Source: a virus
Taxonomy: Duplodnaviria > Caudoviricetes
Virus record (IMG/VR): IMGVR_UViG_2840904412_000001
Span: 2,587-66,586 of that record
Strand: one strand, 5' to 3'
DNA: 64,000 nucleotides
Both the position numbers and the translations under genes were made by a program. Below, in pieces: positions 5,364 through 37,554 of the stretch. How positions within the stretch are numbered: position 1 is the stretch's first letter; every line of letters starts with the position of its first letter. The notes beneath the pieces were generated by a model, which was given only the letters and a program-made list of their open reading frames with translations, was not told where the DNA came from and ran no database searches.

Positions 5364-5547
5364 GTATAAACATACTGGATACGTTCATATTGACACCTTC
5401 TTAGATACAGCAAAAACTGTATTCCATTTATCAGAAGGACAATGTGAAGGTTTTAGAGCCCTTATGACAGGTAAACATTATCAATTTCAAGAAACAGACT
5501 TCTTACCTTACTTAGAAGATTATTTAGGTAAGAAATTAGAAGTTTAA
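5338..5547 (+). CDS. Small conserved protein preceding the tail sheath gene
   Basis: GYVHIDTFL motif; RBS present; synteny. Confidence 0.7.
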   Translation: MARKRTTPKYKHTGYVHIDTFLDTAKTVFHLSEGQCEGFRALMTGKHYQFQETDFLPYLEDYLGKKLEV

Positions 5548-5548
5548 A

Positions 5549-5804
5549 ATAAAGGACTTACTTATTTAGTTGGTCTCAAGCCTCAGTGACTAGGGGGTTG
5601 GAAACAACGTATCCTAGATATGAACTACGTTAGAGGATAATGGTAAAGACTTACCTTCAGATGCACGCTTTAGTCGGAAGCTCTAAGAGTGTGAACAAAG
5701 AAACACTTCTAAGTCATTTGATATGAAGTGATAACATGGAAGCACATATCCACCCTTTGACATTGGCAAAAAGCAAAATACCACGAAAGTGAGGTTAGAC
5801 AGAA
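5549..5804 (+). ncRNA. Putative IscB omegaRNA scaffold
   Basis: GC-enriched non-coding region with hairpins (GAAA loops) directly upstream of iscB, the established location. Boundaries approximate. Confidence 0.7.
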
Positions 5805-7043
5805 ATGTCTAATAAATATTGTTTTGTATTAGATTATGATGGTAAACCATTATCACCAACTAAAGAAAACAAAGGTTGGTTTCTAATACGTAAAGGTAAA
5901 GCAACATTAGAAAAGAAATACCCAATGACCATACGTTTAAATAAACGTGTAGAAGATAAAGACTTAGATAAATCAAAAATGCATGTAGGTATTGATGATG
6001 GTTCTAAACATGTAGGGTTATCTATTGTTCAAGAAGGAGAGACTAAAAATAAAGTAGTTTTTAAATCTACAATAGAATTAAGACAAAATGTAAAGAAATT
6101 AATGGATACGAGAAGAGGTTTAAGAAGATACAAAAGATATCATAAAAGATACAGACCTTCACGTTTTAATAATCGTAAATCTTCTAGGAATACAGGTAGA
6201 TTAGCTCCTAGTATTAAACAAAAGAAACAGTCTATTATACGAGTAGTTAAAGAGTTAAACAAACACATAAGATTTAATCGTATTCATTTAGAAGATGTAG
6301 CTATTGATACTAGAGCTATGACAGATGGTTACAAACCTTATAAATGGCAATATACTAAGTCTAATCGTTTAGATGAAAATATACGTAAAGCTGTTATTAT
6401 CAGAGATAATAATACTTGCCAAATGAGTGGTAATAAAAATGTAAGAATGGAAGTTCATCATATTATTCCTAAACGTTTAAATGGTTCTAACTCTATAAAT
6501 AACTTAATTACTTTGTGTACAGAATGTCATAGGGAAGTAACAGGTAAAGAAGAACAATACATTGATTATTTACAATCTATTGTAGGAAAGAAAACAAACA
6601 CCTTTTTAAATCATGCTTCACATGTAATGATAGGTAAAACTTACTTAAGACAAGAGTTATCTAAAATTGCCTCCATAAGATTAACAACAGGTGGGGACAC
6701 AGCAAATAAACGTATTGATTGGAATATAGAAAAAACACATTCTAATGATGCAATCGTAATTACAAATTTAATTCCTAGTAAGGATTTAAATATAGAAGAA
6801 TATGTAGTTAAACCAATAAGAAGAAAAAGTAAATCTATTTATAATAATGTTAATGGAATTAAGCATAGAGATATTGTTCAATATACTTATAGAAATGGTG
6901 ACACGCATATAGGCTATGTTACAGGTCTTATACCTAGTAGAAAGGCTATTAATTTCCAATCGTCAACAAAGCATTGCAAAGCAGTCAATGCTAAGAAAGT
7001 TAAGTTATTATGGAGATTTACAAATATGTATTGGTTAACATAA
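5805..7043 (+). CDS. iscB: IscB RNA-guided endonuclease (RRXRR/HNH)
   Basis: PLMP-like GKPLSPT, RuvC-I GIDDG, Arg-rich bridge helix RRGLRRYKR, RuvC-II LEDV, HNH EVHHII..N..LITLC..CH, RuvC-III HSNDA. Confidence 0.92.
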   Translation: MSNKYCFVLDYDGKPLSPTKENKGWFLIRKGKATLEKKYPMTIRLNKRVEDKDLDKSKMHVGIDDGSKHVGLSIVQEGETKNKVVFKSTIELRQNVKKLMDTRRGLRRYKRYHKRYRPSRFNNRKSSRNTGRLAPSIKQKKQSIIRVVKELNKHIRFNRIHLEDVAIDTRAMTDGYKPYKWQYTKSNRLDENIRKAVIIRDNNTCQMSGNKNVRMEVHHIIPKRLNGSNSINNLITLCTECHREVTGKEEQYIDYLQSIVGKKTNTFLNHASHVMIGKTYLRQELSKIASIRLTTGGDTANKRIDWNIEKTHSNDAIVITNLIPSKDLNIEEYVVKPIRRKSKSIYNNVNGIKHRDIVQYTYRNGDTHIGYVTGLIPSRKAINFQSSTKHCKAVNAKKVKLLWRFTNMYWLT

Positions 7044-7099
7044 CAAATTATATTATGATATACAATCAAGTATATTTTAAATAAAGGAGACTATAATAC

Positions 7100-8863
7100 A
7101 TGGCAAAAGATATATTTCCACGTAGACCTATCCAACGCCCACATGCTTCCGTTGAAGTAGATACCTCTGGTATTGGCGGTTCAGCTAGTAACAGTGAGAA
7201 AATTCTATGTTTAATTGGTAAATCAGAAGGTGGAGAACCTAATACAGTCTACCAAGTACGAAATTATGCACAAGCTAAATCAGTATTTCGTTCCGGTGAA
7301 TTACTAGATGCAATTGAGTTAGCTTGGGGTTCTAACCCACAATATACAGCAGGTAAAATTTTAGCTATGCGTGTGGAAGATGCTAAAGCATCTCAATTAG
7401 AAAAAGGCGGATTACGAGTAACGTCTAAAATCTTTGGTTCTGTATCTAATGACATCCAAGTTGCATTAGAGAAGAATACAATCACAGATTCTTTACGTTT
7501 ACGAGTTGTTTTCCAAAGAGATAATTATCAAGAAGTATTTGATAATTTAGGTAACATCTTCTCTATTAATTATAAAGGTGAAGGTGACTCTGCTACATTC
7601 TCAGTAGAGAAAGATAAAGAAACACAAGAGGCAAAACGTTTAGTATTAAAAGTAGATGAAAAAGAAGTTAAAGCCTATGAACTAAATGGTGGTGCTTACT
7701 CTTTCACTAATGAAATTATTACTGATATTAATGAGTTACCTGACTTTGAGGCAAAATTATCACCATTCGGTGATAAGAACTTAGAATCTAAAAAACTAGA
7801 TGAGATGAAAGACGTAGACATTAAAGGTAAAGCTGTTTATGTTAAAGCCGTATTTGGAGATATTGAAAATCAAACTCAATACAATCAGTACGTTACGTTT
7901 GAACAACTACCGGAACAATCATCAGAACCTAGTGAGGTAGAAGTAGAAGCGCACGAAGATTCCGCAATTGTATCGGCTACATCTAAACCTAAAGCAATTG
8001 AACCATTCGAACTAACTAAACTTTCTGGAGGTACTAACGGTGAGCCACCTGCGTCTTGGTCATCTAAATTAGAGAAGTTTAAAAATGAAGGTGGATACTA
8101 CATTGTACCTTTAACTGACCGTCAGTCAGTACATTCAGAGGTTGCAACATTCGTTAAGAATCGTTCTGACGCAGGGGAGCCTATGCGTGCCATTGTAGGT
8201 GGCGGAGTCTCTGAAACAAAAGAGAAATTATTCGGACGACAAGCTATCTTAAATAACCCTCGTGTTGCATTAGTAGCTAACTCTGGTAAATTTGTTATGG
8301 GTAATGGTCGTATTTTACAAGCTCCTGCTTACATGGTAGCTAGTGCTGTCGCAGGTTTAGCTAGTGGTTTAGATATTGGTGAATCAATTACATTTAAACC
8401 ATTATTTGTAAATAGCTTAGATAAAGTTTACGAATCAGAGGAATTAGATGAACTTAATGAGAATGGTATTATTTCTATTGAGTTTGTACGTAATCGTATG
8501 ACTACAATGTTCCGAATTGTAGATGATGTTACAACATTCCCTGATAAGAATGACCCAGTTAAGTCCGAAATGGCTTTAGGTGAGGCAAATGACTTCTTAG
8601 TAAGTGAACTTAAAATCTTACTTGAGGAACAATATATTGGTACTCGTACTATTAATACAAGTGCTTCACAAATTAAAGACTTTGTACAATCTTACTTAGG
8701 TCGTAAAAAACGTGATAATGAAATTCAAGATTTCCCACCTGAAGATGTTCAAGTAATTATTGAAGGTAATGAAGCTAGAATTAGTTTAACTATCTTCCCA
8801 ATTAGAGCACTTAAGAAAATTTCAGTATCACTTGTTTATAGACAACAAACATTACAAGCCTAA
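7100..8863 (+). CDS. Tail sheath protein
   Basis: 587 aa, FPRRPIQRPHA N-terminus typical of K-like sheath proteins. Confidence 0.95.
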   Translation: MAKDIFPRRPIQRPHASVEVDTSGIGGSASNSEKILCLIGKSEGGEPNTVYQVRNYAQAKSVFRSGELLDAIELAWGSNPQYTAGKILAMRVEDAKASQLEKGGLRVTSKIFGSVSNDIQVALEKNTITDSLRLRVVFQRDNYQEVFDNLGNIFSINYKGEGDSATFSVEKDKETQEAKRLVLKVDEKEVKAYELNGGAYSFTNEIITDINELPDFEAKLSPFGDKNLESKKLDEMKDVDIKGKAVYVKAVFGDIENQTQYNQYVTFEQLPEQSSEPSEVEVEAHEDSAIVSATSKPKAIEPFELTKLSGGTNGEPPASWSSKLEKFKNEGGYYIVPLTDRQSVHSEVATFVKNRSDAGEPMRAIVGGGVSETKEKLFGRQAILNNPRVALVANSGKFVMGNGRILQAPAYMVASAVAGLASGLDIGESITFKPLFVNSLDKVYESEELDELNENGIISIEFVRNRMTTMFRIVDDVTTFPDKNDPVKSEMALGEANDFLVSELKILLEEQYIGTRTINTSASQIKDFVQSYLGRKKRDNEIQDFPPEDVQVIIEGNEARISLTIFPIRALKKISVSLVYRQQTLQA

Positions 8864-8945
8864 TGTTTTATCTCGTATAGAGGGTTTAGGCTTGTAATAC
8901 CCTTTATAAATTAAAAGAAAATGAAATTAATGGAGAGTGAATTAA

Positions 8946-11900
8946 ATGGCGTAAATTGACGCTATTAGTAAAGTGATTTGCTAATACCCAAGGTTAACTG
9001 CTATGAAATCCTAAAGCTCATTTAACTACAAAGCAATCCGAAAGGATAAACTTGAATGTTGTGAAAACAGAAAAAATAAATGAGATGTACTAAGGTTAAA
9101 TCCTAAGGTATATACAATGGACGTATAGCATCGAAACATCTAAGTCTTTAAAGATAAGATGAACGTTCAACGACTATTCCGTATAGGTGACGGAAGTAAA
9201 GCCCAAAGTGATTGTGGGAAGAAAAATCTTGCCCTTAATTAAAAATTAAGGTGAACAAATAGTCTAAGCACGTACTGAAAAGTAGTGTTAGGAATTGACC
9301 TAAGTTTACAAAGTAGCGTTTGTAAATAAAAAATAAAAAAATACAAATTACTACTTGACTTTCATACTTCATTATAGTACACTCTAAATTAGAAAGTGAG
9401 GTGTATGAATAATGGAGTATAAACACTTAAGATTAAAACTCAAACCTGACAAGAACCAAGAAGAGCTATTATGGTTACATGCGAATCATAGTAGAGCGTT
9501 ACGTAATATATTGGTAGAATACGTGAACAAAGTAAAGAAAGAAACACCGAAAACTTCAATAAGTAAGACATTATTATATGAAAAGTACTCAGACTTACGA
9601 AAAGATACTAAGTATTCTTGGTTATTAGAGGTATCAGAGTCTTCTTTAAATACTGTTACACGAGTGTTGTATGAGGACTACAATAATTACTTCAAAGGTA
9701 GAAGAAGAAAACCTAAATTTCATAGTAAAAAGTATGGAAAACAATATTTCTATCCTAGGACAGGTAAAGGAAGACTATATATCAAAGATTCTTTTTTAAA
9801 GATTGAAAAAGTCGGTAGAGTTACTATTTCTAAAAGAGACTTATATAATAAACATGATATTATTTACAAAATTCAAAAAGAAGATAAATTTTATAGGTCA
9901 GTTGTCTACCACGATGGTTTAGACTGGTTTATATCTTTAACATATAAAAATAGTATTAGTAACGATAACCAAGTCAAACATACTACAGTTAAAGATAAGC
10001 AAGGAACTTTAGGTATTGATTTAGGTATAAATAAACTTGCTACATGCTCTGATGGTACTATTTATAATAATGTTATTATGACTTCTTACTATAATAAGTT
10101 AACCCGTAAACTTAAGAGACTACAGAGACAGGTGTCGAGGAAGTATAGTATGAATAAAGATTACTTAGTAGTATATTTACTAGACGGAAAAGGTAAACCA
10201 AAACTAGACAAGTATGGCAATCATAAATTTAAGTATGCTAGAAAAACTCAAAATATCATAAAATTAGAGCATAAAATAAAAAAGTTACAAAATAAAATGA
10301 AAAATATAAGAAAAAATCAAACACACCAAGTCACTAAAAAAATTGTTGATACAGGGTCTCAGACAATAGTTATAGAGGACTTAAATGTAAAAGGTATGAT
10401 GAAAAATAAGTATAGAGCTTACTACATATCTAACTCTAATTTTTTCTTATTTAGAAAATATCTAACTTATAAATGTGCGGATAGAGGTATAGATTTAATA
10501 GTAGCGGATAGCTGGTATCCAAGTTCACAAACATGCTCTTCTTGTGGATACAGATTAGAGGGAAAAGAAAGACAAAGAATAAAGAATGGTCGTAAGACAT
10601 TTGAATGTCCTAAATGTAACCATACGCAAGATAGAGATTTAAATGCTAGTATTAACTTGAGTAAATATAATCTTAATAGATAATAAAGTAAGTTAAGTAG
10701 TATGTAGGGTTCAGTTTGCCCGAATTTAACGACCTTAGAGTACCATATCAAACTTAAGTAGTACTTAGTGAATAATACAAGTAGCTAATACAAACAAGGG
10801 TACGTAGAAGAGGTAATAAAATACTTTGTATTTTTGATAACTGTCACAAGCTAAACAGACAGTCCATACTGGTAATACTGTAATGCTTATGATTAAAGGT
10901 AAACCAGTAGGTAGAGCTCAATCAGCATCTGGTACTCGTAGTTACGGTACAGAAGGGGTGTATGAAATTGGTTCTATCATGCCACAAGAACACGTTTACC
11001 TTAAGTATGAAGGTGAATTAACAGTAGAACGTCTACGAATGAAAAAAGAGAACTTTGCAAAATTAGGGTATGCTTCACTTGGTGAAGAAATCCTTAAGAA
11101 AGATATTATTGATATTGTTGTTATTGACAACTTAACTAAAGAAGTGCTTGTTAGTTATCACGGTTTAAGTAGTAGACCCCTTGTATAGTGATATACATTG
11201 AATAACACTTTAAATTGCTGGAACACCCTTAGAGCCTAATAAACTACAACGTAACTAGAAATGGTAAGCGTGAATGTTTAAAAATTATTAGGATTGGGCA
11301 ATCAGCATCGAAACTCCTTTAATATGGAGGACGTTCAACGACTATAATAAGTGAGTCTTAGTTACAAATTAAGATTATGGTATAGTCTAGCCCGTATTCA
11401 AATATTACGAAAGTAACGGTATGTAGCGGTTCAGCCAATAACTATGACGAGTCATGGTCAACGAATTAACTAAATAGTTCCTTTTATCTAGTAATAGATA
11501 ATCGAAAATACCTTAAATTGCGGGGAATCCTTAAAGCCATTTGAACTACAACGTAATAGGAAACTATAAGCGTGAATGTTGAGAAATCAGAAAAAATCAA
11601 TTGGATAACATATGGTGAGATAAAAGCACTATAACAGTGTCCTAAGTGTTGTAAAATAGGAAATCCGCATCCAAGCCTACACTACGTGGGAAGGTTCAAC
11701 GACTATAATAGGTACATCCTTATGGGATGATGGTATAGTCTAAGCCCTTTAAAATATATCGAAAGATAGGGTAATATTTTACTAAAAGTGTAAAATATCT
11801 GGAAATAGTTACAGAGTCGATTACTTTTTCATGATGTTTAGAGAACATAGTGACCTTATACAGTAATGTATATTGAATAACCTACTTAATTCATGGAAAC

Positions 11901-12145
11901 CCCTAACGTAAAGACGAGGGCAATCATGAGCCAAGCCTAGTAATAGGAAGGTGCAACGACTAGAGAAAGGGTAGCTTATTATTATAGGTAATAAGTGAGA
12001 ACCGAGTATCGTACACTCAAGTGAGTGGAAATGGTAGGGTTCCTAAAGTAACGATTAGGAACGTGATATAGTCTAGTCCGTATTTAAATATTACGAAAGT
12101 AACGGTATAAACGATTTAACGGCTTCAGACAAAGCCTCAAGATAA
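8946..12145 (+). CDS. Tail tube protein, 5 exons: join(8946-8951,10844-11165,11429-11466,11802-11832,12114-12145), 142 aa
   Basis: Joined exons total 429 nt: MASQAKQTVHTGNTVMLMIKGKPVGRAQS...SYHGCSANNYDESWSTNEIVTESITFSYLTASDKASR*, collinear with K-like tail tube proteins (Twort orf142 size). Confidence 0.9.
9355..9383 (+). promoter_or_regulatory. Sigma-A type promoter for the intronic tnpB
   Basis: TTGACT-17 nt-TACACT, followed by GAGGTG RBS. Confidence 0.7.
9412..10683 (+). CDS. tnpB: TnpB RNA-guided endonuclease (intron-encoded)
   Basis: N-terminal LKLKP HTH, RuvC GIDLG / VIEDL / DRDLNAS all intact, zinc finger CSSC...CPKC. Confidence 0.93.
   Translation: MEYKHLRLKLKPDKNQEELLWLHANHSRALRNILVEYVNKVKKETPKTSISKTLLYEKYSDLRKDTKYSWLLEVSESSLNTVTRVLYEDYNNYFKGRRRKPKFHSKKYGKQYFYPRTGKGRLYIKDSFLKIEKVGRVTISKRDLYNKHDIIYKIQKEDKFYRSVVYHDGLDWFISLTYKNSISNDNQVKHTTVKDKQGTLGIDLGINKLATCSDGTIYNNVIMTSYYNKLTRKLKRLQRQVSRKYSMNKDYLVVYLLDGKGKPKLDKYGNHKFKYARKTQNIIKLEHKIKKLQNKMKNIRKNQTHQVTKKIVDTGSQTIVIEDLNVKGMMKNKYRAYYISNSNFFLFRKYLTYKCADRGIDLIVADSWYPSSQTCSSCGYRLEGKERQRIKNGRKTFECPKCNHTQDRDLNASINLSKYNLNR
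10684..10843 (+). ncRNA. Putative TnpB omegaRNA scaffold (guide would be exon 2 from 10844)
   Basis: Motif order parallels 37385-37554 (ATGT..GAATTTAA..CAAACTT.AGTAG..TACGT.GAA..TTTTTGA.AAC.G). Confidence 0.7.
11166..11428 (+). ncRNA. Group I intron (tail tube intron 2, ORF-less)
   Basis: P1 GGUU/GACC with U.G pair, P7 GACTA/TAGTC, terminal G; restores the Cys codon T|GT. Confidence 0.9.
11467..11801 (+). ncRNA. Group I intron (tail tube intron 3, ORF-less)
   Basis: P1 GAAU/GUUC, P7 GACTA/TAGTC, terminal G; restores STN|EIV. Confidence 0.9.
11833..12113 (+). ncRNA. Group I intron (tail tube intron 4, ORF-less)
   Basis: P1 UCAU/GUGA, P7 GACTA/TAGTC, terminal G; restores the Tyr codon T|AT. 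Confidence 0.9.
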
Positions 12146-12155
12146 TTGACTCTAT

Positions 12156-12183
12156 AGACCTAGTTAATTCTAGGTCTTTTTTT
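12156..12183 (+). terminator. Terminator after the tail tube gene
   Basis: AGACCTAG-TTAATT-CTAGGTCT plus T tract. Confidence 0.85.
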
Positions 12184-12184
12184 A

Positions 12185-12213
12185 TTGACAAAATTTAATT
12201 TGTGTGGTAACTT
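12185..12213 (+). promoter_or_regulatory. Sigma-A type promoter
   Basis: TTGACA-17 nt-TAACTT with TG extension. Confidence 0.55.
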
Positions 12214-12230
12214 ACTATTGAGGTGATAAT

Positions 12231-13181
12231 ATGAATATTATAGGGTTAAATATAAAAACAGGAGAAGAAAAAACTTTTAACTCAATACAAGAAGCACAAA
12301 AGATGGTAGGTAATAAAGGAACAGTAAAAAGGTGCTTAGATGGAAAAATAAAAACAACAAAAGGATGGGTGTTTAGATACGAAGGGGAAGATTTTCATGA
12401 AAATACAAAGAAAATGACAAATAACAATATAAAAGTATTTGTTATAAGTAAAGGTGATGAAGAAATAAAGTTACCTTTAGAGATGTTATGTAATTTATAT
12501 GGACTAAGTAAGTCAGAAATTACTACAGTAGCTAAAGGATATAAAGGGAATATGTATAGGAAAAAAGTTAAAGGATACTTAGTAAGAGAGGCAACCGAAG
12601 AAGAAACAAAAGATGTGTTATCTAGTATAAGTTATATAGATTATGTAAAAACAATATCAATAAAAAAAGAAAAAGAATACCCGATTAGTATAGGTGAGAA
12701 GATAATAAAAGATATTCTGGATTACAATAAGGTGAAATATGTAAGAGAATATCCCCTTAAAAATTCCACACAAAGAATGGATTTTTATGTAGAGTTAGAT
12801 AATAACCACAAATATTGTATAGAACATCAAGGACAACACCATTATAGGGGTTGGAATGTTTCACTAGAAAAACAACAAGAACTAGATAATATTAAAAGGA
12901 AGTACTGTAGGGATAATGATATTGAGTATGTTGAAATAAAATATAATACAACTATATTGGGGACATTTGAGTTGTTAAAATCATTAGGTATAGTTACTAA
13001 AAGACCTAGTGTATTCACCTTTTATAATAATATTGAGTTAGATATTGATGATATAATAGAAAAATATCAATATATGGATAGATACCAATTAAGTGAGTAT
13101 TATGGCATCCCTATAAATGACCTTAGAAATGCAATAGCATTAATTGGAAGAAATCTTAAAAGAAAGTTTAAAAACAGGTAG
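12231..13181 (+). CDS. Free-standing putative homing endonuclease (NUMOD1 DNA-binding + Vsr/DUF559-like nuclease domain)
   Basis: KTGEEKTFNSIQEA NUMOD1-like motif; S.GE..I...L, REY, MDFY, IEHQGQHHY, D..K..YC motifs. Confidence 0.75.
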   Translation: MNIIGLNIKTGEEKTFNSIQEAQKMVGNKGTVKRCLDGKIKTTKGWVFRYEGEDFHENTKKMTNNNIKVFVISKGDEEIKLPLEMLCNLYGLSKSEITTVAKGYKGNMYRKKVKGYLVREATEEETKDVLSSISYIDYVKTISIKKEKEYPISIGEKIIKDILDYNKVKYVREYPLKNSTQRMDFYVELDNNHKYCIEHQGQHHYRGWNVSLEKQQELDNIKRKYCRDNDIEYVEIKYNTTILGTFELLKSLGIVTKRPSVFTFYNNIELDIDDIIEKYQYMDRYQLSEYYGIPINDLRNAIALIGRNLKRKFKNR

Positions 13182-13238
13182 TATATTAACCCTTGACAAT
13201 ACTCAAGGGTTATTTTATATTATTAATGAGGTGATAAG

Positions 13239-13394
13239 ATGAACTATAGACAAGCTAAATTAAAAGGTAGAGATACTTTCTATTATTACGACTACCCTAC
13301 TACTAAAGGAAAATATAAAAAGATAAAACAGCGTAAATCACGAGTTGAATTAAAAAAATATTTACAAAAAGAAAGGAAGAAGCATCTTGACTAA
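13239..13394 (+). CDS. Small basic hypothetical protein (51 aa)
   Basis: GAGGTG RBS; MNYRQAKLKG...KKHLD*; below the ORF-track size cutoff. Confidence 0.65.
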   Translation: MNYRQAKLKGRDTFYYYDYPTTKGKYKKIKQRKSRVELKKYLQKERKKHLD

Positions 13395-13530
13395 GAATAG
13401 AAGGAAAACAATAGGTAAACTAAGTAAAACTAGAGCTACTTGGAACATTAACCCAGTAACAAGAGTAAAGAAAGATAAAACTAAATACACAAGAAAAAAG
13501 AAACATAAAAATGTTGACAAGGACTATTAG
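13387..13530 (+). CDS. Small basic hypothetical protein (47 aa, TTG start)
   Basis: AAAGGA RBS; MTKNRRKTIGKLSKTRATWNINPVTRVKKDKTKYTRKKKHKNVDKDY*. Confidence 0.55.
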   Translation: MTKNRRKTIGKLSKTRATWNINPVTRVKKDKTKYTRKKKHKNVDKDY

Positions 13531-13565
13531 CCATTTTATAATAAGGATAAAGGAGCTGATATATT

Positions 13566-14021
13566 ATGTTTTATTCAGAAAGAAGAACAACTTGTAAGGA
13601 AAGACAAGTTAAAAAACATTATTCACAAATGACGCTACAAGAAAAGAAAGATTGTGTTTCACTTTTACAGAATGTTTTTGAACATTGTAAATTTTTTAAG
13701 ATGACACCTCATTTTAAAGAAAAATTACTTACTAGAATAGACTTTGACTTACTTACAAAGTTTATACTTCATAATAAGTATTCATTTTTAAATATTATAG
13801 AATACAATGAAACGAAAACATATAACAACACAGAAAAGCGTATAGTTCTAAAATATCCTAAGATTGTATATGTGAAAGGTGTTCCTTGTTTTCAGTACTT
13901 AGTTATTACACATACGGGTAAACTAGTTACAACATACTATAATAGGATTGATGACGTACATAAAACTCTAGATTTAAAATACTACGATAAAAATTTAAAA
14001 ATAAGTGTTGACATTTACTAA
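13566..14021 (+). CDS. Conserved hypothetical protein
   Basis: AAGGAG RBS; SERRTT..RQVKKHY motif seen in K-like phages. Confidence 0.7.
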   Translation: MFYSERRTTCKERQVKKHYSQMTLQEKKDCVSLLQNVFEHCKFFKMTPHFKEKLLTRIDFDLLTKFILHNKYSFLNIIEYNETKTYNNTEKRIVLKYPKIVYVKGVPCFQYLVITHTGKLVTTYYNRIDDVHKTLDLKYYDKNLKISVDIY

Positions 14022-14058
14022 TACGTAATTTATACTACAAATATAAACATAAAGGAGA

Positions 14059-14373: not shown

Positions 14374-14454
14374 AAACAGAGTATATAGTATAATAAAAGT
14401 ATACTCTGATGTTATATTAATTATGAATAGGAAAAAGGAAAGGAAGTTAAGGAA

Positions 14455-15427: not shown

Positions 15428-15477
15428 GGGTAGTAGTATTTCTACTACCCTATTTTTAAGTAGTAGGTGGTTTAGAA

Positions 15478-19257: not shown

Positions 19258-19304
19258 GGGTAGGGTAATAATACCCTTCCCTTATTTTTAAAGGAAGTGG
19301 AATT

Positions 19305-24400: not shown

Positions 24401-24492
24401 GCACCTATGCTTACCTTTTTTTTGATGTTATATTAAAATTGAATTGATATATTAAATAGAATATGATATAATAGGTTTTGAGGTGATTAACC

Positions 24493-26493: not shown

Positions 26494-26509
26494 TAGAAAG
26501 GAAATTTTT

Positions 26510-27556: not shown

Positions 27557-27566
27557 GAGGGGTCTT

Positions 27567-30500: not shown

Positions 30501-30698
30501 GACAACGCTACAGGGGAAGTAGTTACATTAACATCTACAAATGTCACTAACAAAACAACTTTAGATACATACTCATATAGTAATTATAAATATCAAGAGA
30601 CTGTATTATTGAACTCTAATATACCACTTTCTAATAATACATTAACTTTAGATACAGAGTCCTATGAGAAAGACACTACATTCTTAAAAATAATTTAA
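27567..30698 (+). CDS. Baseplate wedge/arm protein with internal carbohydrate-binding-like modules
   Basis: ATGTYLDKFGDWFG, KPAGV motifs; NRNLL...KLERGSIATAYQP CBM-like block. Confidence 0.75.
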   Translation: MSTFLKNLHPLLRRKKSTRDNQDPNYALIKVLNEEINQVEKDVIKSKLQSSLKTATGTYLDKFGDWFGLYRKKDEEDDKYRDRIIEYLLLKRGTNSSIVKAIKDYLEKEDAYVYVYEPYKNIFYTNKSHLNGEDHLMGYYYRFAVINIKIGSYFPTEILEVINKFKPAGVKVYLTYDGAYNNTGSYVIKMLEGLPIITNYTQVTRLSGFGDTFYGHLNLAERKESVTISSSLFKVNRSKINSEDVLSGSSSTGRVFYNYAYYSRHDYVLNDNSPVTSRDTYSAKEMPLEYYAYTKELDNYTVNYTLPTTQSVKFIYNSFNLEEYFLKYKPEVVTGDKKESIIKFIGEATYDYYMSALVPPEESIMVDLQIFDFVTKQWNTINTSRVSSKEVNIGGSIGYLTDYINSMLVLFTRLRIRDYKEVSIKVNYIDISFNNTQIDRYTNNRFLPNIYKVLSSLSSYNYIDATKLTLPTNGDIISKRAYYPSQYIRIGDAYSNNINRNLLNNTVVSSGNYTSHSNSTITKQGNELKVETGENQTKTDVELSNNIVLTAGSTYTLSFMYKSNDNTKPLDYTFLQDTTGTKLPLVFSNINHTSAYTRVIKTFTIDGSSDNYSLIIGKNSSDIFHIKDFKLERGSIATAYQPNPSDLYTVDPNNSITIELLKEDSTPIESEVYQEKSKNLFQSYKGSIDISHDITNTEMFTTSGFASTLYSTDYLDKILEEGKRYTIHFELEIVDTIDSSFKTFSDTHGIWFYSATTPKDNINLREQISRTSPRKLEKTVTFTAPRITDHRLIIYSGRYTIDGTAYTQPIKSNTIKITNLVIQEGEEYTGYSKSSYDEVTFLNKTVKVNGARTDIGKINVSSVNNIPRARLLYSTYGGNYDLIKNINLSQGTNTILNKYIDLYGLSTIDYSDITPMSDVILQSIWNIPINTLNSQSGNLDGLYKGFFNALWQTITNNDERVYTIETLDILKNNEGGVMDNATGEVVTLTSTNVTNKTTLDTYSYSNYKYQETVLLNSNIPLSNNTLTLDTESYEKDTTFLKII

Positions 30699-30781
30699 TA
30701 GCGTATTGACACGGTTCTTGTTATGTGTTATGATAAGAACGTGATATATTAATATATGACGTTAAAAAAGGAGACAAATAA

Positions 30782-31291
30782 ATGGCTATTGCAACGATTA
30801 ATTCACATGTAGAACTAGCTAAATACTACGCTAGTAAAGATTTTCATTTAGTACTAGGAAAGACATCACCATGGTCTAATGAACAAAGCCCCCCACAACC
30901 TAAAGACACAACAAGTGCCTTACAAGAGGTTATTGGGTATAAGAAAGCTAAAAAAGTAGCTTTAGTACGTCCTGCACAACCAGGAACTGATGACTCTAAG
31001 CAAAAAATCCAATATGGTAATAGAGAATGGGTAGAAGTATCCCAAGAAAATGCTATTACAGAAGGTGCTAAATATGTTTACCTTCAAGCAGAAGTAGTAG
31101 GGGACGAGCTTCCTTTAGGAACATACAGACAAGTAGGTTTTACTATGGGATTAAAATCTTCTTCAGATAAACTAAATTTAGTACCTAGTGAAGTACAAGA
31201 TGCGGGAACATTAATTTTCTATGATAATAAACAATTTCAAAACCGAGTAGCTCAAACAACAATTATTGAGTCGTTTATTATGGAATTATAA
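30782..31291 (+). CDS. Baseplate structural protein
   Basis: MAIAT...[11 protein letters not shown]...YRQVG family. Confidence 0.75.
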
Positions 31292-31307
31292 GAGAGGGGA
31301 TAATTAT

Positions 31308-34300
31308 ATGGCTTTAAATTTTAGTGGTTCTCCTTATTTAGATAGATTTGACCCAACTAAGAACAGAACAAGGGTTCTTTTTAACCCAGATAGACCATTA
31401 CAGCAATCAGAATTAAATGAGATTCAGTCTATCCAAACATATTACCTAAAGAACTTTGGTGACGCCGTATTTAAAGATGGTGATAAGGTATCCGGAATGG
31501 GGTTTACCTTAGATACTAATAACATTTTAAGAGTAAACCCAGGATATGTTTACATTAATGGTAAAGTAAGATACTATGAAAGTAATAGTTCTGTTAAACT
31601 TACAAAAGTAGGAAGAGAAGAAGTAGGTATTAAATTAACAGAGCGTATTGTAACTGCTGATGAAGATAACAACCTACTAGACCAAACAAGTGGAGTACCT
31701 AGTTATTTTTCTAAGGGTGCTGACAGGGTTCAAGAGGACATGGTACTTACTGTTAATGACCCTTCAAGTGCTACTATTTATGTATTCCAAGACGGTGACT
31801 TATATATACAAGCTAGTAATCCTGAGTATGACAGAATTAATAAAGTATTAGCTGAACGTACGTATGAAGAGTCAGGCTCTTATAAAGTGCAAGGGTTTGA
31901 AATTTTTAGTGATGTAGAGGGTAAAGGTGAAGACATGGTACCTATCACAGTTGACTCAGGTATTGCTTATATATTAGGTTATCGTGTGAACAAACCAGTA
32001 TCCACACGTCTTAACTTACAAAAATCTTATGACCTAGGTACGGCAGAAAATGAATCTACTGTATATAATGACTCTAATAAAATAATCACCTTAGCAAATA
32101 AACCTGTTAAACAAGTAAACCGTGTAACTGGACAGGTACTTGTAGAAAAAGAAGCAATTTCTAGAGACAATGTAGGAGATACTGTAGATTACTTAGCAAA
32201 CAATACAGCTTTTGAAATTGTACGTGTTTGGACAGAAGATAGCCCTGAGCATACTACAAAAGAATATAAGCAAGGCACAGATTACAGACTAACAAACGGA
32301 CAGTCAGTAGACTGGTCATTAGGCGGAGAAGAGCCTAATGGCGGTACTACTTACTATGTTTCGTATAAGTATAATAGACGTATGGAAGAGAGCAAAGATT
32401 ACACTTTGAAAACAACAGGAGAAGGTGCAAATAAATACTGGTACTTAGACTTCAATACTGAAGGAACTAAGCCGATTGACCAGTCTGTTGTATTAGTGGA
32501 CTATAACTACTACTTAGCACGTCAAGACTTGATTGTATTAGATAAAGATGGTAATATTAAGGCATTAAAAGGTGAACCTAATATTTTAAGAAATGTTACA
32601 CCCCCACTTCAACATGACCCATTTACTCTTCAACTAGGTTATGTAACAATATTCCCAGACTCTGATGCTACAGAATGTTACACACAATCTGTAGAGCGTT
32701 TATCAATGGAGTCCTTACAAAAGATGAAAAAACGTATTGATAACCTAGAGTATAACCAAGCATTGAACGCATTAGATGATAGTGCTATGGAAGGTCAAAA
32801 CCCACTCACATTACGTTCAGTGTTTAGTGATGGCTTTGTTAGTTTAGAGAAAGCCGATGTAACACACCCAGACTATGGTGTTGCTATGAGTTTTGAGGAC
32901 TCAGAGGTAACACTACAGTATACAACTAGCGTGAATGACCCTAACTTACTAAAAGGCTCAAGTAATATTCACAACTGGGGTAGAATTGTTTCAGCACCAT
33001 TTACTGAGGAGCGCACAATTTACCAACCACTAGCTAGTGAAACACTTAATGTAAACCCTTATAATATACCAAATAAACAAGGTAAACTAAAATTAACACC
33101 TAGTGAGGATAACTGGATTGATGAAGAGAATGTAACAATTAACCAGTTCGGTAAAGCTAAGGTAGTTAATACACGTAGATGGTGGGTTCATCCAGAGGCT
33201 TCAGCTAAACGTAATGCAAAATCAAGAGCAGAACAAGCAAAAATTGAACTAGATAATGGATTAGAGTTTGGTAGTACTTTTGAAAAATGGCGTGCAACAA
33301 CTACAGGTACCATGACTGAAGTGGGACATAAAACATTAGAAGAAATGATTGAGTTCATTAGACAACGAGATGTTAAATTTGAGGTAAACGGACTACATCC
33401 TAATGATAATAACTTAGTATTATACTTTGATGGTGTTAGAGCACCTATTACACCAGATGTAGGATACAGAAAAGGAACCGAAGAAGGTTCTATTATTACA
33501 GATGCAAAAGGAACAGCAAAAGGCAAGTTTACAATTCCCGCAGGTATTCGTTGTGGTAATCGTGAAGTTTCATTAAAGAATGAAAATTCTACTAGCTCAA
33601 CTACATATTCCGCACATGGTAGAAAGAAGATTAACCAAGAGATTATCTTACGTACACGTGTCACAGTAAACTTAATTGACCCATTAGCTCAATCATTCCA
33701 GTACGATGAAAACAGAATCATCAGTTCTGTAGGTTTATACTTTGCATCTAAAGGGGATGACAACTCTAATGTAACGGTTCAAGTGCGTGAAGTAGGTAAT
33801 CAAGGTTTCCCTACTAAAACTATTTACGGAGAACAAGTAGTTAACTCTAGTGATATTAAGGTATCTAATAATGCTAGTGCTGAGACAAGAGTATACTTTG
33901 ATGACCCTATTATGGTAGAAGCAGGAAAGGAATACGCTTTAGTTATTCTTACAGAAAATGATGAGTATACTATGTGGGTAGGTACACGCAATAAGCCACG
34001 TATTGATAGACCAACAGAAACCATTTCTGGTAATCCATATGCACGAGGAGTATTATATAGCTCATCTAACGCAAGTGCATGGACAATTCACCAAAATAGT
34101 GACCTTAAATTTGGTATTTACACAGCTAAATTTAATGAGACAGCACAAATTGAGTTTGAGGAAATGACTGATGTTAAAGGTGACAGACTTGTATTAATGT
34201 CTACATACTTAACACCAGAGAACACGGGTTGTACATGGGAAATGAAAGTAATCACTGATGCTATGGATGAGGGTACAATATTCGATACGCTTAAATGGGA

Positions 34301-34763
34301 GCCTGTTGGTAACTACCAAGATATAGAAATCGATTCTGTAATTAAAAAAGTTAAGTTACGTGCAACATTTAACTCTAATAAATATATTTCACCTCTATTA
34401 AGTGTATCTGATTTAACATTTACAACATTCTTAACTAACCTTAAAGGTAGCTACATTGCTAGAGGCGTAGATATGAGTGAGGCACCATTCAATACTATTA
34501 GATTTAGTTACGAGGCATTTCTACCTCAAGGGGCAACAGTGACTCCTAAGTACTCTGTAGATGGTGGAGTGTCATGGAAAGAATTTAGTAAAACAGCAAC
34601 TAAGACTAAAGCCAACAACGAATTTACTAGATACGTTATTGATGAGAAAACAAATAAATCATCTAAAGATAAAAAATTAAAAGTTAGATTGGACTTAGCA
34701 ACTAAGAATAGTTTCTTACGTCCACGTGTAAGACGTCTAATGGTTACAACTAGAGATGAATAA
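31308..34763 (+). CDS. Large adsorption-associated tail/baseplate protein (DUF4815-like)
   Basis: SPYLDRFDP..VLFNPDRPLQQSELNE, RTYEESGSY, DPLAQSF motifs. Confidence 0.85.
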   Translation: MALNFSGSPYLDRFDPTKNRTRVLFNPDRPLQQSELNEIQSIQTYYLKNFGDAVFKDGDKVSGMGFTLDTNNILRVNPGYVYINGKVRYYESNSSVKLTKVGREEVGIKLTERIVTADEDNNLLDQTSGVPSYFSKGADRVQEDMVLTVNDPSSATIYVFQDGDLYIQASNPEYDRINKVLAERTYEESGSYKVQGFEIFSDVEGKGEDMVPITVDSGIAYILGYRVNKPVSTRLNLQKSYDLGTAENESTVYNDSNKIITLANKPVKQVNRVTGQVLVEKEAISRDNVGDTVDYLANNTAFEIVRVWTEDSPEHTTKEYKQGTDYRLTNGQSVDWSLGGEEPNGGTTYYVSYKYNRRMEESKDYTLKTTGEGANKYWYLDFNTEGTKPIDQSVVLVDYNYYLARQDLIVLDKDGNIKALKGEPNILRNVTPPLQHDPFTLQLGYVTIFPDSDATECYTQSVERLSMESLQKMKKRIDNLEYNQALNALDDSAMEGQNPLTLRSVFSDGFVSLEKADVTHPDYGVAMSFEDSEVTLQYTTSVNDPNLLKGSSNIHNWGRIVSAPFTEERTIYQPLASETLNVNPYNIPNKQGKLKLTPSEDNWIDEENVTINQFGKAKVVNTRRWWVHPEASAKRNAKSRAEQAKIELDNGLEFGSTFEKWRATTTGTMTEVGHKTLEEMIEFIRQRDVKFEVNGLHPNDNNLVLYFDGVRAPITPDVGYRKGTEEGSIITDAKGTAKGKFTIPAGIRCGNREVSLKNENSTSSTTYSAHGRKKINQEIILRTRVTVNLIDPLAQSFQYDENRIISSVGLYFASKGDDNSNVTVQVREVGNQGFPTKTIYGEQVVNSSDIKVSNNASAETRVYFDDPIMVEAGKEYALVILTENDEYTMWVGTRNKPRIDRPTETISGNPYARGVLYSSSNASAWTIHQNSDLKFGIYTAKFNETAQIEFEEMTDVKGDRLVLMSTYLTPENTGCTWEMKVITDAMDEGTIFDTLKWEPVGNYQDIEIDSVIKKVKLRATFNSNKYISPLLSVSDLTFTTFLTNLKGSYIARGVDMSEAPFNTIRFSYEAFLPQGATVTPKYSVDGGVSWKEFSKTATKTKANNEFTRYVIDEKTNKSSKDKKLKVRLDLATKNSFLRPRVRRLMVTTRDE

Positions 34764-34809
34764 TTTTAAAGGGGATTCTATCCCCTTTTCTATAAAGGAA
34801 TGATGATGT

Positions 34810-34977
34810 ATGCCACATGAGTATAGAGACCCTTACTCACAAACAAAAATATTTATTCCAACACCACAAGAAAAGAGTGTGTTGGAGTTACATGATAGAT
34901 TATCAAAGAAAGAAAAACTATTTGATGAAAAACTAAAAAAACTAGATGAATTAATTAGTAGGAGTGAACTTAACTAA
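34810..34977 (+). CDS. Small conserved protein (55 aa)
   Basis: MPHEYRDPYSQTKIFIPTPQEKS...; AAAGGA RBS; stop overlaps the next start. Confidence 0.7.
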   Translation: MPHEYRDPYSQTKIFIPTPQEKSVLELHDRLSKKEKLFDEKLKKLDELISRSELN

Positions 34978-36026
34978 TGGCTTTTACTTTTAAACAATTA
35001 AAAGGTACGGACTATTTAAAAGATGCTTACCCTAAAATAAATGAGTTAGGTAGCAATAGTGCCTCCTTGTCACAAGATGTAGAGAATATACAGAGGATGT
35101 TTCAAAATATACAGACATTTAGTATTACTGATAGCAGAGGCAGAACTCCTGAGGGGTCTCAGATAAATCAAGATTACGTAAGTAGCTATGTTGATGTATA
35201 TGGTTCTTTAGTATATCCACCAGACAACGTTAATTCTACAGGCTGGATTTACGCTAAGATTACTGCGTCGAATGAGGGTATGTTAGTTTTTTTACCTGAT
35301 AATTCAGAAAAAATATTTACAAAGGTTAAACATAACGGCTCATGGTCTGCATGGTCTAGCTATAGCTCTGATAGAGAAATTAATAAATTTATTCCAGGAG
35401 ATATACTTAAGAATGGTGATTTTGATTACAAGTGGGGAATAGGTTCTGGTACATTAGAGGACGAGGTAGCTAATGTAAACTTTGGGCTGTCCTTGTTCTA
35501 TGCAACACAAAACATGAGAAATTCTAAGTTCCCTGAACCCGTTATGGGTACAATACAGAAAAGTGTTGAAGGTAGTGGTTTTAAAGCTATTATAAAAGCT
35601 ACAGGGGTTTCCGGCAAAGAATATATCATAAATATACGTAATGGTTACAGTAAACCTGTATCTCAAACTATTACAACAACGGAACTTTGGAAAGGTAGTC
35701 AAGATTTAGCTACTAAGAGTACTGTTAGGTTAAAAGACACAGTTAATAATTATGATTATATTGAGTATTACGTTACATTTTCTTTAGGTGGTGCGTATAC
35801 ATTTAAGGTATCACCTCAAGTATCTACGGTATACTTTCGTGATTTAAACCTTGTGAATAACGATTCTAGTGCGGGATTTGACTTATTTGAGGGCGCTGTT
35901 ACTGTTGATAGTTCTGGATTATCAATTACACCTTATATGAGTAAGAAAGTAACAGGAAATGCAGTTCAGTCTGACCAAACTGGAAATATTACGTTACAAG
36001 CCGTTACTGGCATCAAACAAATATAA
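34977..36026 (+). CDS. Putative receptor-binding / tail fibre protein
   Basis: WSAW repeat motif, LWKGS..LKDTVNNYDYIE C-terminal domain; synteny. Confidence 0.7.
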   Translation: MAFTFKQLKGTDYLKDAYPKINELGSNSASLSQDVENIQRMFQNIQTFSITDSRGRTPEGSQINQDYVSSYVDVYGSLVYPPDNVNSTGWIYAKITASNEGMLVFLPDNSEKIFTKVKHNGSWSAWSSYSSDREINKFIPGDILKNGDFDYKWGIGSGTLEDEVANVNFGLSLFYATQNMRNSKFPEPVMGTIQKSVEGSGFKAIIKATGVSGKEYIINIRNGYSKPVSQTITTTELWKGSQDLATKSTVRLKDTVNNYDYIEYYVTFSLGGAYTFKVSPQVSTVYFRDLNLVNNDSSAGFDLFEGAVTVDSSGLSITPYMSKKVTGNAVQSDQTGNITLQAVTGIKQI

Positions 36027-36119
36027 AGGGGGATTATAACAGGTAATAGTTTATAAAAACTTATAAATTTATTTGTATTTTTGGATAAAATATGCTATAC
36101 TATATATAGAGGTGATAGT

Positions 36120-36275
36120 ATGGCATATATGTCTATAGAAATTATTGATAATGAAGAAAAAACGGAACAACAAGAGTTAGTAGAAGATTTAATTCAAATA
36201 GTTACAGTATTTTCTTGTAGATTACAAGGAAAAAGAGCACATAAAGCTAAAAAAAATAGTAGGTACATTAACTAA
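36120..36275 (+). pseudogene. tnpA: IS607 serine recombinase TnpA remnant (C-terminal helix only)
   Basis: IEIIDNEEKTEQQELVEDLIQIVTVFSCRLQGKRA is the IS607 TnpA C-terminus; the HTH and catalytic Ser domain are absent. Confidence 0.85.
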
Positions 36276-37384
36276 TGATAACTAAAAAAGTTAGACTTAA
36301 GCCTACTAAACAACAGGAGTTAAAATTGTATAAATCATCCGGTACAGCAAGATTTATATATAATTGGACTTTAGCAAAACAACAAGAAAATTATAGACAA
36401 GGTAATAAATTTATACAAGATTCTGTGTTAAGAAAAGAAATAACACAACTAAAGAAAACTGAAGAGTTTAAATGGTTGAGTGAAGTAAGTAACAATATTC
36501 CTAAGCAAGCAGTTAAAGACGCTTGTAATGCTTACAAAAGGTTTTTTAAAAAGCAATCTAGCTTTCCTAGGTTTAAATCTAAAAAGAAAACAAGACCTAG
36601 TTTCTATAATGATTCACAAAAACTAAAAGTAAAAGAAAACTTAGTATTATTAGAAAAAGTAGGTTGGGTTAGAACTTCTGAACAATTACCTACTAATACC
36701 AAGTACTATAATCCTAGAATTACTTTTGATGGTAAGTACTGGTACATAAGTGTTTCTATTGAAGGAGAGAACAGATATGAAGAGCTAACAAACGAATCTT
36801 TAGGTATAGATTTAGGTATAAAAGAGTTAGCCGTATGCTCTGATGGAACCATTTATGGGAATATTAATAAAACAATAAAAGTTAAAAAACTAGAAAAACG
36901 ATTACGTAGATTGCAACGTAAGGTATCACGTAAATACCAAAAAAATAAAGAAGGGAGTACCTTTGTCAAAACTTGCAATATTGTAAAACTTGAAAAACAA
37001 ATTAAACTATTACAACGAAGATTGTCTAACATTCGAAAAAACTATTTACATCAAACAACAACTTCTATAGTGAAAACCAAACCTAGAAGAATTGTTATAG
37101 AAGACTTGAATGTAAATGGTATGATGAAGAATAGACATTTAGCTAAAGCAGTACAAAAACAAGGTTTTTATGAATTTAGAAGACAATTAGAATACAAAAC
37201 TAAAAGAAAAGGTATTGAATTAGTTATTGCAAATAGATTCTTTCCTTCTAGTAAAACATGCTCTAATTGTGGTAAAGTCTATAAAAATTTAAAACTATCA
37301 GACAGAATACTTAAATGTGATTGTGGTTTTAGTATTGATAGAGACCTAAATGCAAGTATTAATTTAGCTAATTACAATATTTAG
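36275..37384 (+). CDS. tnpB: TnpB RNA-guided endonuclease (IS607 type)
   Basis: RuvC GIDLG / VIEDL / DRDLNAS intact; zinc finger CSNC...CDC. Confidence 0.95.
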   Translation: MITKKVRLKPTKQQELKLYKSSGTARFIYNWTLAKQQENYRQGNKFIQDSVLRKEITQLKKTEEFKWLSEVSNNIPKQAVKDACNAYKRFFKKQSSFPRFKSKKKTRPSFYNDSQKLKVKENLVLLEKVGWVRTSEQLPTNTKYYNPRITFDGKYWYISVSIEGENRYEELTNESLGIDLGIKELAVCSDGTIYGNINKTIKVKKLEKRLRRLQRKVSRKYQKNKEGSTFVKTCNIVKLEKQIKLLQRRLSNIRKNYLHQTTTSIVKTKPRRIVIEDLNVNGMMKNRHLAKAVQKQGFYEFRRQLEYKTKRKGIELVIANRFFPSSKTCSNCGKVYKNLKLSDRILKCDCGFSIDRDLNASINLANYNI

Positions 37385-37554
37385 ATTAACACTAATAAGA
37401 TACTAAATATGTGTACCATTCGTTGTATGGGAATTTAAGCCTTTGAAGTATCATACAAACTTGAGTAGAGTAAATGAATATAGTAATTTACTCAAAAAGG
37501 GATACGTTGAAAAAGGAATAAAATTTATAAAGTTTTATAAGTTTTTGACAACGG
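37385..37554 (+). ncRNA. Putative TnpB omegaRNA scaffold
   Basis: Structured right-end region downstream of tnpB, similar to 10684-10843. Confidence 0.65.

Follow-up and report, generated by a model that had tools for sequence, protein, structure and literature searches.

Non-autonomous IscB, IStron and IS607 elements in a Twort-like Staphylococcus phage: proposed transposition in trans and a possible part for RNA-guided homing

Why would a lytic-type phage carry three intact RNA-guided nucleases of the OMEGA type and no intact transposase? The question is raised by a 64,000-nucleotide stretch of viral DNA (Duplodnaviria; Caudoviricetes), here called the window, which comprises bases 2587-66586 of the 66,586-bp IMG/VR record IMGVR_UViG_2840904412_000001. 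Its region from the baseplate and sheath genes to the tail-fibre genes contains an iscB gene, a tnpB gene inside an intron (tnpB-1) and a second tnpB gene in an IS607-family element (tnpB-2). Cas12 and Cas9 descend from TnpB and IscB, for which, to our knowledge, a natural role has been demonstrated in bacterial chromosomes and plasmids only. Recombination is intense among lytic phages in mixed infection, and these phages are the classic home of protein-guided homing endonucleases. The original prediction, made from the letters of the window, was that the three elements kept the nuclease and lost the transposase because they persist by RNA-guided homing or exclusion between co-infecting phage genomes. 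We find that they are very probably an ISC-type IscB element, an IS607-type IStron and an IS607 element with a deleted tnpA (coordinates in Table 1). The complete account, in which three non-autonomous selfish elements of a Twort-like phage reach new sites by transposition in trans and then home, we put at a probability of about 0.55.

The window is part of a Twort-like Staphylococcus myovirus. Its closest deposited relatives, the Staphylococcus phages vB_SpsM-DH2 (DH2) and Twort, belong to the Herelleviridae (Twortvirinae), and the genes they share with it are ~89-93% identical. Compared with both phages, it has a 1.5-kb insert with iscB between a small open reading frame (ORF) and the tail sheath gene. 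On either side of the insert lies an imperfect 13-14-nt repeat, in which the sheath Shine-Dalgarno sequence is included; the element boundary is ambiguous inside this repeat, and the Twort alignment puts the ends at 5557-7074. The protein matches the PDB entry for HfmIscB (9k2z) with an E value of 3.8e-161 over residues 3-411, and our literature search found no paper under that name. The motifs GIDDG, LED, HH..N and HSNDA are kept in an alignment with OgeuIscB (7xht), and the RuvC and HNH catalytic columns are conserved in all four intact phage IscB copies. These columns are D, E and H/D of RuvC and H and N of HNH.

The guide RNA of IscB is less clear-cut than those of the two TnpB proteins. 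The original prediction assigned an omega RNA region to each nuclease. This holds for both tnpB genes, which are followed by RAGATH-18 motifs above the gathering score, and is weaker for iscB, where the HEARO match at 5580-5781 reaches 32.6 bits, below the gathering score of 83. HEARO matches spanning the full model length occur in all five IscB copies at 31-33 bits, also below threshold; Meers et al. (PMC10055086) took matches of at least 15 bits when they lay upstream of iscB. Could the guide be a fixed internal sequence? We rejected this candidate: the 19 bases before the HEARO match recur nowhere else in the window, and in phage VL10 the match begins ~10 nt after the neighbouring stop codon, which also disfavours an internal guide. 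A flank-derived guide is favoured over it, though unproven. The guide would then be the left flank, ending near 5548-5556, and the target-adjacent motif (TAM) would be the AAGG motif on the side opposite the guide flank.

The intronic tnpB lies in the tail-tube gene. Where the Twort tube gene starts with ATGGCATCT, the window has ATGGCG, 1,892 bp and then TCACAAGC. The gene is interrupted after codon 2, and excising 8952-10843 gives the MASQAKQ N-terminus of Twort and BE07. Rfam Intron_gpI has no match at 8952-9400 even at E up to 1, and none on the DH2 or VL10 loci; we therefore relied on homology and on a covariation fold of six aligned sequences. The first 400 nt have homologues of 71-79% identity in 130 Staphylococcus phage records, among them ORF-less introns of the Silviavirus tail-lysin gene and a Sepunavirus intron at the 3' end of the tube gene. 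The fold has 95 predicted pairs, with compensatory changes in 50, and the predicted core comprises P2, P3, P4-P6 with an extended P5, P8 and P9, with hairpins P7.1 and P7.2 between the P7 strand and P3'. The P7 strands themselves (GACTA/TAGTC) are invariant across the alignment and were not predicted by the folding program because they form a pseudoknot. G is the last base of the 5' exon and U the first base of the intron; the element ends in CTG and the flank is GCG. Since the tail-tube gene is essential, we infer that the transcript is spliced at 8951/10844; a search for RNA sequencing runs containing 8700-11300 listed none. Thus the intronic tnpB belongs to a real IStron, recognized by its exact insertion, the covariation of its ribozyme and an enclosing inverted repeat.

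TnpB-1 keeps the D/E/D columns and zinc-ribbon cysteines in an alignment with TnpB-2. A related IStron with an intact 402-aa TnpB is found in DH2, where it interrupts another structural gene; the window counterpart of that gene, 2036-2947, is an orthologue without an insertion. Rfam detected no RAGATH-18 motif after the DH2 IStron tnpB (DH2 piece 1480-3400). The tail-tube gene of the window (~142 codons) also contains three more group I introns (Rfam, 52-61 bits, at 11156-12096 and 12231-13181) and thus has four intervening sequences, with an I-HmuI-like endonuclease ORF after the gene.

The third element is co-linear with a copy in VL10 except for ~425 bp deleted inside tnpA. The VL10 copy is the autonomous form, with a 204-aa TnpA (MerR helix-turn-helix and Resolvase domains) that overlaps tnpB. 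Other, larger tnpA deletions are present in Twort, RSM-J51Sa, SEP1 and Romulus. The ends of the remnants differ among the window, Twort, RSM-J51Sa and SEP1, which indicates that tnpA was lost several times separately. TnpB-2 matches PDB entry 8iaz (E 9e-86). Its D/E/D residues align with D191, E278 and D361 of ISDra2 TnpB, of which we take D361 to be catalytic. D191 and E278 have been named as catalytic (PMC8612924). In the autonomous VL10 copy (piece 2643-3752), the first TnpB zinc-ribbon cysteine is an arginine (..SSKTRSNCG..), and the tnpA-less copies keep the cysteine.

DH2 preserves the empty site of this element. There, AAAGGAGG stands directly before the start region of the DUF2977 gene, and the window has 1.5 kb inserted at that place. 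The empty allele has an AGGAGG-type motif followed by 35 bases that are identical to the right flank in the window at all 35 positions compared, and GG is found at both junctions of the inserted element. An exact 18-mer search of IMG/VR for the target returned 0 contigs.

All three nuclease genes are therefore intact, as originally predicted, with their Pfam domains and catalytic motifs kept. The predicted lack of a transposase is likewise borne out: in the whole 66,586-bp record there is no match to the Y1 (PF01797) or serine-recombinase (PF00239) domains, and the IS607 tnpA is a 51-codon remnant. The record is rated ~47% complete, so "no transposase" is valid for this fragment only.

Are the nucleases maintained where tnpA has been lost? 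We compared the window with four fetched of the 10 Staphylococcus phage records that match the IscB element, and with six fetched of the 82 records that carry the DNA of the IS607 element, plus the DH2 empty site. The ratio of non-synonymous to synonymous divergence (dN/dS) in the TnpB-2 family is 0.106-0.152 for pairs with dS 0.25-0.65; between the window and Twort, dS is 0.31 and dN/dS 0.14. When one partner is a 63%-identical IMG/VR copy, dS exceeds 1.2 and the ratio lies at 0.16-0.25. SEP1 does not differ from one IMG/VR copy, so that this pair yields no ratio, and the VL10 and Romulus copies, both intact, start with GTG and fall outside a table built with an ATG-only ORF finder. In the IscB family, dN/dS is 0.18-0.28 at dS 0.24-0.87. 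The non-coding regions are conserved as well. Upstream of iscB, the distance between copies is 0.036-0.15 against an ORF dS of 0.24-0.87; 3' of tnpB-2, it is 0.036-0.18 against 0.31-0.65. The guide-RNA regions are thus 3-8 times more conserved than synonymous sites. In both families, the nuclease ORFs and adjoining guide-RNA regions are under purifying selection although tnpA has been lost.

DNA of the IS607 element occurs at 86-92% identity in 82 phage records from several genera (81 Staphylococcus phages and one record titled Silviavirus), and members of the same element families are found at different sites across several Staphylococcus Herelleviridae genera. Between the window and Sepunavirus, tnpB has dS 0.63 and dN 0.067, and the sheath gene dS 1.11 and dN 0.233; the IS607 family is less diverged between genera than this core gene. 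The closest bacterial relatives do not exceed 68% protein identity. A pattern-based search with one genome per species gave 73 bacterial loci and, among them, no staphylococcal chromosomal relative. VL10 is the one record in which we found the cognate TnpA at full length. Another full-length IS607 TnpA (41% identical) is encoded in at least seven other Staphylococcus phage records.

Occupancy varies even among near-identical phages. In contigs of sequencing run X2, from another study and ~99% identical to the window, position 5548 is joined to 7079: the IscB element is gone and the IStron is kept. Run X4 has the same IscB-less joint at low depth, and run X3, from a third study, contains identical pieces of iscB and tnpB-1. 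The nearest differences between X2 and the window lie 61 bp and 71 bp from the IscB junction, and no co-conversion pattern is readable. This natural IscB-positive and IscB-negative phage pair at ~99% identity is new here. An X2 contig also appears to skip 11166-12009, with weak support (25 nt on one side).

Where do the elements insert? Every one of the six IS607 sites has a start codon 6-14 nt after the ...ACGG right end. The related IscB copies lie in different places: directly before a HubA-like gene in JDF86 (60% identical to window 4521-5363), before phoH in Golestan101-M, near primase and ribonucleotide reductase (RNR) genes in VL10, and in an unannotated place in RSM-J51Sa. At the left junction, ..AAGGA is followed by a common element start in the window and three relatives; the left end in VL10 has diverged and its boundary is not fixed. 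Where four right junctions were read (window, JDF86, Golestan101-M and VL10), the flank opens with an AAGG-type ribosome-binding site.

The TAMs of IS607/RAGATH-18 TnpB proteins are usually AGGAG or GAGGG (PMC13565253), and that of CboTnpB is TGGG (Zedaveinyte et al., 10.1101/2023.11.20.567912). In a genome of ~31% G+C, such motifs are essentially Shine-Dalgarno sequences. The positions at ribosome-binding sites therefore follow from the resemblance of the target motifs to the Shine-Dalgarno sequence (IS607 targets GG and the IscB element AAGG), together with the loss of insertions that hit coding sequence, and need no separate argument from low cost. The original prediction that the elements sit at low-cost sites was right as to place, at ribosome-binding sites or in an intron; as to cause, Shine-Dalgarno-like targets are a better explanation than selection on cost alone.

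These observations suggest how the elements could persist. New sites would be reached by TnpA-catalysed transposition, the enzyme coming in trans from rare autonomous copies that co-infecting phages carry. Target motifs that coincide with Shine-Dalgarno sequences would direct insertion into ribosome-binding sites just before start codons, and the IStron would be tolerated in an essential gene because its ribozyme splices it from the mRNA. The resident nuclease, with a guide copied from the adjoining flank, would then cut element-free alleles, whether these arose by excision or came from a co-infecting relative, and recombinational repair would copy the element into the cut allele. The geometry is compatible with homing, in that the guide is the flank and the DH2 allele offers a perfect target; nuclease and guide RNA are under selection without tnpA, and phages with and without IscB exist in nature. 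The homing step is the least certain part of the explanation, a plausible but unproven hypothesis, and we rate a real contribution of RNA-guided homing or exclusion between phages somewhat short of even odds. More tentative again is a stronger version, in which whole lineages of all three elements, resident in lytic-type Staphylococcus Herelleviridae and not in the hosts of these phages, have repeatedly shed the transposase and may persist as programmable homing or exclusion endonucleases with the Shine-Dalgarno sequence as TAM. On this version, the IscB-positive and IscB-negative phages at ~99% identity would capture such a drive under way.

Several findings weigh against homing, and most directly against homing alone. 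The sites are not fixed, as homing had led the original prediction to expect. The IS607 family has six or more sites, since the right flanks of ten copies are of six classes (a count without the IMG/VR copy of 63% identity, whose right-end pattern is unmatched), five IscB copies have five different left flanks, and the IStron remnants in the portal gene lie ~200 nt apart between this contig and VL10. Sites so scattered mean that transposition is needed, and frequent, and that homing alone is insufficient. Pairs at the same site were seen only in close relatives (RSM-J51Sa with an IMG/VR contig, 91.8% identical over 3.5 kb, and runs X1, X2 and X3) and could be explained by vertical descent. Among the copies compared, none shares an occupied site across diverged genomes, as a homing element would.

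The tail-tube gene itself raises a further difficulty. All eight intron-less tube alleles examined have A or C (GCA/GCC) at window position 8951, where the occupied allele has G (GCG), and they carry 1-5 mismatches in the first 20 target bases; empty tube alleles may thus not be cleavable by TnpB-1. The G at 8951 is either a requirement for insertion, a mark left by the insertion event or the counterpart of an immunity of empty alleles. Nor is the loss of tnpA the sign of homing for which it had been taken. The tnpA-less state is the norm in bacteria, where ~75% of tnpB and 98.5% of iscB genes have no nearby tnpA (PMC10055086), and as the family default it does not point to homing; its absence from the window elements does not exceed the chance expectation.

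Might these then be non-autonomous transposons of the usual kind, for which phages are an incidental home? They would spread only via TnpA in trans, without homing and without effect on competitors, and their nucleases would only restore a site that TnpA had just left, from one replicating copy of a phage genome to another. The scattered sites are what such elements would leave, the autonomous VL10 copy and the other full-length IS607 TnpAs in the at least seven records could supply the enzyme, and both the tnpA-less bacterial majority and the mismatch of every empty tube allele at the base adjoining the insertion point fit equally well. Yet restoration needs excision by TnpA, and one record has the full-length cognate TnpA against 82 with DNA of the element. 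Purifying selection acts on nuclease and guide RNA where tnpA is long gone, as between the window and Twort, and the empty DH2 allele retains a perfect target. On balance we hold this explanation to be unlikely, though well short of negligible.

Decay is plain in the fragment itself. The inventory of three intact nucleases stands but is incomplete, with at least one further decayed TnpB/IStron remnant. Near the end of the window, a decayed IStron has 71% identity to 8969-9300, and its upstream frames are full of stops. The start of the contig (1-260) carries the same decayed sequence, then a RAGATH-18 motif and the last portal exon. These terminal IStron repeats probably cause both the "direct terminal repeat" label of the record and the break in its assembly. 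Other decayed copies are the IscB of RSM-J51Sa, truncated after ~90 codons, and a TnpB remnant in the VL10 portal gene. In addition, the window IscB element has lost the 12-bp subterminal hairpin of three relatives. If the hairpin is the TnpA binding site, this copy is no longer transposable, yet a near-identical phage is cleanly without the element. At 5557-5580, ~21 nt of hairpin are missing relative to the relatives; that of RSM-J51Sa has 12 bp and a z score of -4.7.

Such decay invites the view that the elements are recent, functionally irrelevant relics, heading for decay and intact only through youth. TnpB-1 might be read in this way: against X2, its only close relative, it has 4 non-synonymous and 2 synonymous changes, too few to establish constraint, and the loss of the IscB end hairpin also speaks for this view. 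For the other two families, youth is a poor explanation of dN/dS ratios of 0.11-0.28 accumulated over dS 0.24-0.87, of guide regions that outlast synonymous sites and of catalytic columns that are kept without exception. The check for neutral decay therefore turned up some decayed copies against a background of purifying selection in the IscB and IS607 families, and we regard the relic explanation as very improbable.

Selection on the nucleases could also mean that phages have co-opted them as weapons that cut element-free co-infecting relatives, to the benefit of the whole carrier genome. The predicted guides lie over translation-start regions of conserved structural genes, and one intron endonuclease of a phage is reported to interfere with a competitor phage (bioRxiv 10.1101/2023.09.30.560319). 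A weapon of value to its carrier fits badly with patchy occupancy among near-identical phages and with decaying copies, and targets in more distant relatives are mismatched. Phage benefit and element benefit are not separable from these data, and we consider co-option improbable next to transposition in trans with homing.

Every gene of the region under study is on the + strand. A scan for promoters and terminators over 5300-11200 gave 29 promoter-like sites against 28.3 expected and was uninformative. A UvsW-like helicase gene (39335-39808 and 40215-41354) is split by a group I intron at 39762-39995 (87.5 bits). The family A DNA polymerase gene is in two parts, 59016-61241 and 61602-62579; the gap (61242-61601) has a short similarity to the IStron ribozyme at 61377-61427 and is likely a group I intron missed by Rfam. 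The RNR large-subunit gene appears to be split too (53724-54308 and 54549-55505).

Table 1. Features of the three elements, their host genes and a decayed copy; positions are those of the window.
Feature	Position	Strand	Basis or remark
Non-autonomous ISC/IS200-605-type IscB element	5549..7078	+	Missing at this place in Twort and DH2
Putative omega RNA scaffold, conserved non-coding region upstream of iscB	5557..5804	+	HEARO-like match
iscB, 412 aa, intact	5805..7043	+	Pfam RRXRR 2.1e-48, HNH 2e-11
Tail sheath gene	7100..8863	+	Pfam Phage_sheath_1, Twort annotation; Shine-Dalgarno directly 3' of IscB element
Tail-tube exon 1 (ATGGCG)	8946..8951	+	Alignment with Twort and BE07 tube genes
IS607-type (group-B-like) IStron: ribozyme, tnpB, omega RNA	8952..10843	+	1,892 bp, inserted exactly by comparison with Twort
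Group IA-type ribozyme core, P1-P9 with P7.1 and P7.2	8952..9352	+	Six-sequence alignment
5' arm of AU-rich inverted repeat enclosing tnpB module	9337..9350	+	3' arm 10822-10835; 14 nt, 93% complementary
tnpB-1, 423 aa, intact	9412..10683	+	Cas12f1-like_TNB 2.7e-22, OrfB_IS605 3.2e-15
RAGATH-18 motif, predicted TnpB-1 omega RNA scaffold	10732..10816	+	55.7 bits, gathering score 44.9
Tail-tube exon 2	10844..11165	+	tblastn with BE07 tube protein; first ~16 nt are the predicted TnpB-1 guide/target
IS607-family element, tnpA deleted	36033..37555	+	Missing at this place in DH2; ends ambiguous by a few bases at GG cores
Serine-recombinase tnpA remnant, 51 codons, in-frame internal deletion	36120..36275	+	First 6 and ~last 45 residues left
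tnpB-2, 369 aa, intact	36275..37384	+	TNB 4.2e-22, OrfB_IS605 4.1e-20, HTH_OrfB 6.8e-15
RAGATH-18 motif, predicted TnpB-2 omega RNA scaffold	37440..37518	+	63.4 bits, gathering score 44.9
Predicted TnpB-2 guide/target	37556..37571	+	Covers DUF2977 gene start codon (37562)
Decayed IStron	63306..63990	+	Ribozyme-like part 63306-63634; only C-terminal ~90 TnpB residues

How much of this is new? IStrons, IS607/RAGATH-18 TnpB elements and IscB with HEARO have all been described, and the elements in the window are known kinds of selfish element. HEARO and RAGATH-18 have been noted in Silviavirus at the level of annotation (PMC13346280), and "transposases" in Sepunavirus have been listed, their role not investigated (PMC10244729). 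A 2026 review (PMC13565253) raises, as theory, the possibility that TnpA-less IStrons and IS elements home, and that "non-restorative homing" takes place, between co-infecting phages. In our literature search we found no paper showing phage-to-phage homing by TnpB or IscB and none describing IStrons in Staphylococcus phages. "Staphylococcus" occurs 0 times in the main text of Tourasse 2014 (PMC4227781), whose Table S1, with all IStron copies, could hold entries from such phages.

What would follow if RNA-guided homing works in phages as protein-guided homing does? Phage crosses would become a quick and easy way to assay gene drive by OMEGA systems. The idea is testable here, given defined ends and a predicted guide/target for each element, the empty allele in DH2 and near-identical phages with and without IscB. 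The match between target motif and Shine-Dalgarno core also gives a mechanistic reason for insertions at ribosome-binding sites. Moreover, many "transposase" and "HNH endonuclease" annotations in Staphylococcus phages that are candidates for therapy are such RNA-guided nucleases.

Among known systems, the intronic element is closest to the group B IStrons (BcISt1, CbISt1-4, CboIStron), which have the same order of 5' group IA ribozyme, tnpB and 3' omega RNA. In these elements a 5' exon with a final G is followed by an intron whose first base is U and whose last is G, and an AU-rich stem surrounds the ORF; the element ends in CGG or CAG next to a GG flank, and "ORF B only" and truncated-ORF A variants are known (PMC4227781). 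The exon-G/intron-U junction and the AU-rich inverted-repeat stem recur here, as does a 3' splice site that is also the element end, so that the guide is the 3' exon. Two group B IStrons have been reported in Clostridium botulinum phages (PMC4227781; 10.1101/2023.11.20.567912). Unlike these relatives, the window IStron resides in a Twort-like, strictly lytic-type Staphylococcus myovirus, at codon 3 of the tail-tube gene. It has a GCG flank and a CTG end rather than GG and CGG, and among all TnpBs of the phage collection the best relative of its TnpB reaches only 43% identity. The other Staphylococcus phage introns of its ribozyme family mostly have no ORF.

The IS607 element resembles the IS607/RAGATH-18 TnpB elements (PMC13565253, citing Ren 2024; 8iaz), whose serine-recombinase TnpA with a MerR helix-turn-helix is likewise present in the VL10 copy. 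The window shares with them a TnpB with HTH_OrfB, OrfB_IS605 and TNB domains, a RAGATH-18 motif after the ORF, GG cores and a G-rich motif by the target. It departs from a typical IS607 in the reduction of tnpA to 51 codons, in a lineage housed in Staphylococcus Herelleviridae, and in copies that always lie inside a Shine-Dalgarno sequence, within the same short distance of a start codon. The IscB element has the compact RRXRR, split RuvC and HNH architecture of the ISC/IscB family and, like it, no tnpA (Kapitonov 2016, PMC4810608; Meers 2023, PMC10055086). It also has a conserved structured region of ~250 nt upstream, bounded by the transposon end, with a hairpin in relatives. Unlike the reference ISC elements, its HEARO score is far below the Rfam threshold and its end hairpin is deleted; AAGG flanks both ends, the insertion is by a ribosome-binding site and the host is a lytic-type phage.

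Finally, the logic proposed for all three elements is that of the phage homing endonucleases (I-TevI, SegF and I-HmuI-like enzymes), which cut the element-free allele and have the element copied in by repair. Classical members of this world are present in the window too, in the three further group I introns of the tube gene and the I-HmuI-like ORF. The difference would lie in recognition, which would be by a guide RNA copied from the flank rather than by protein, and in a route by transposase that is present or past.

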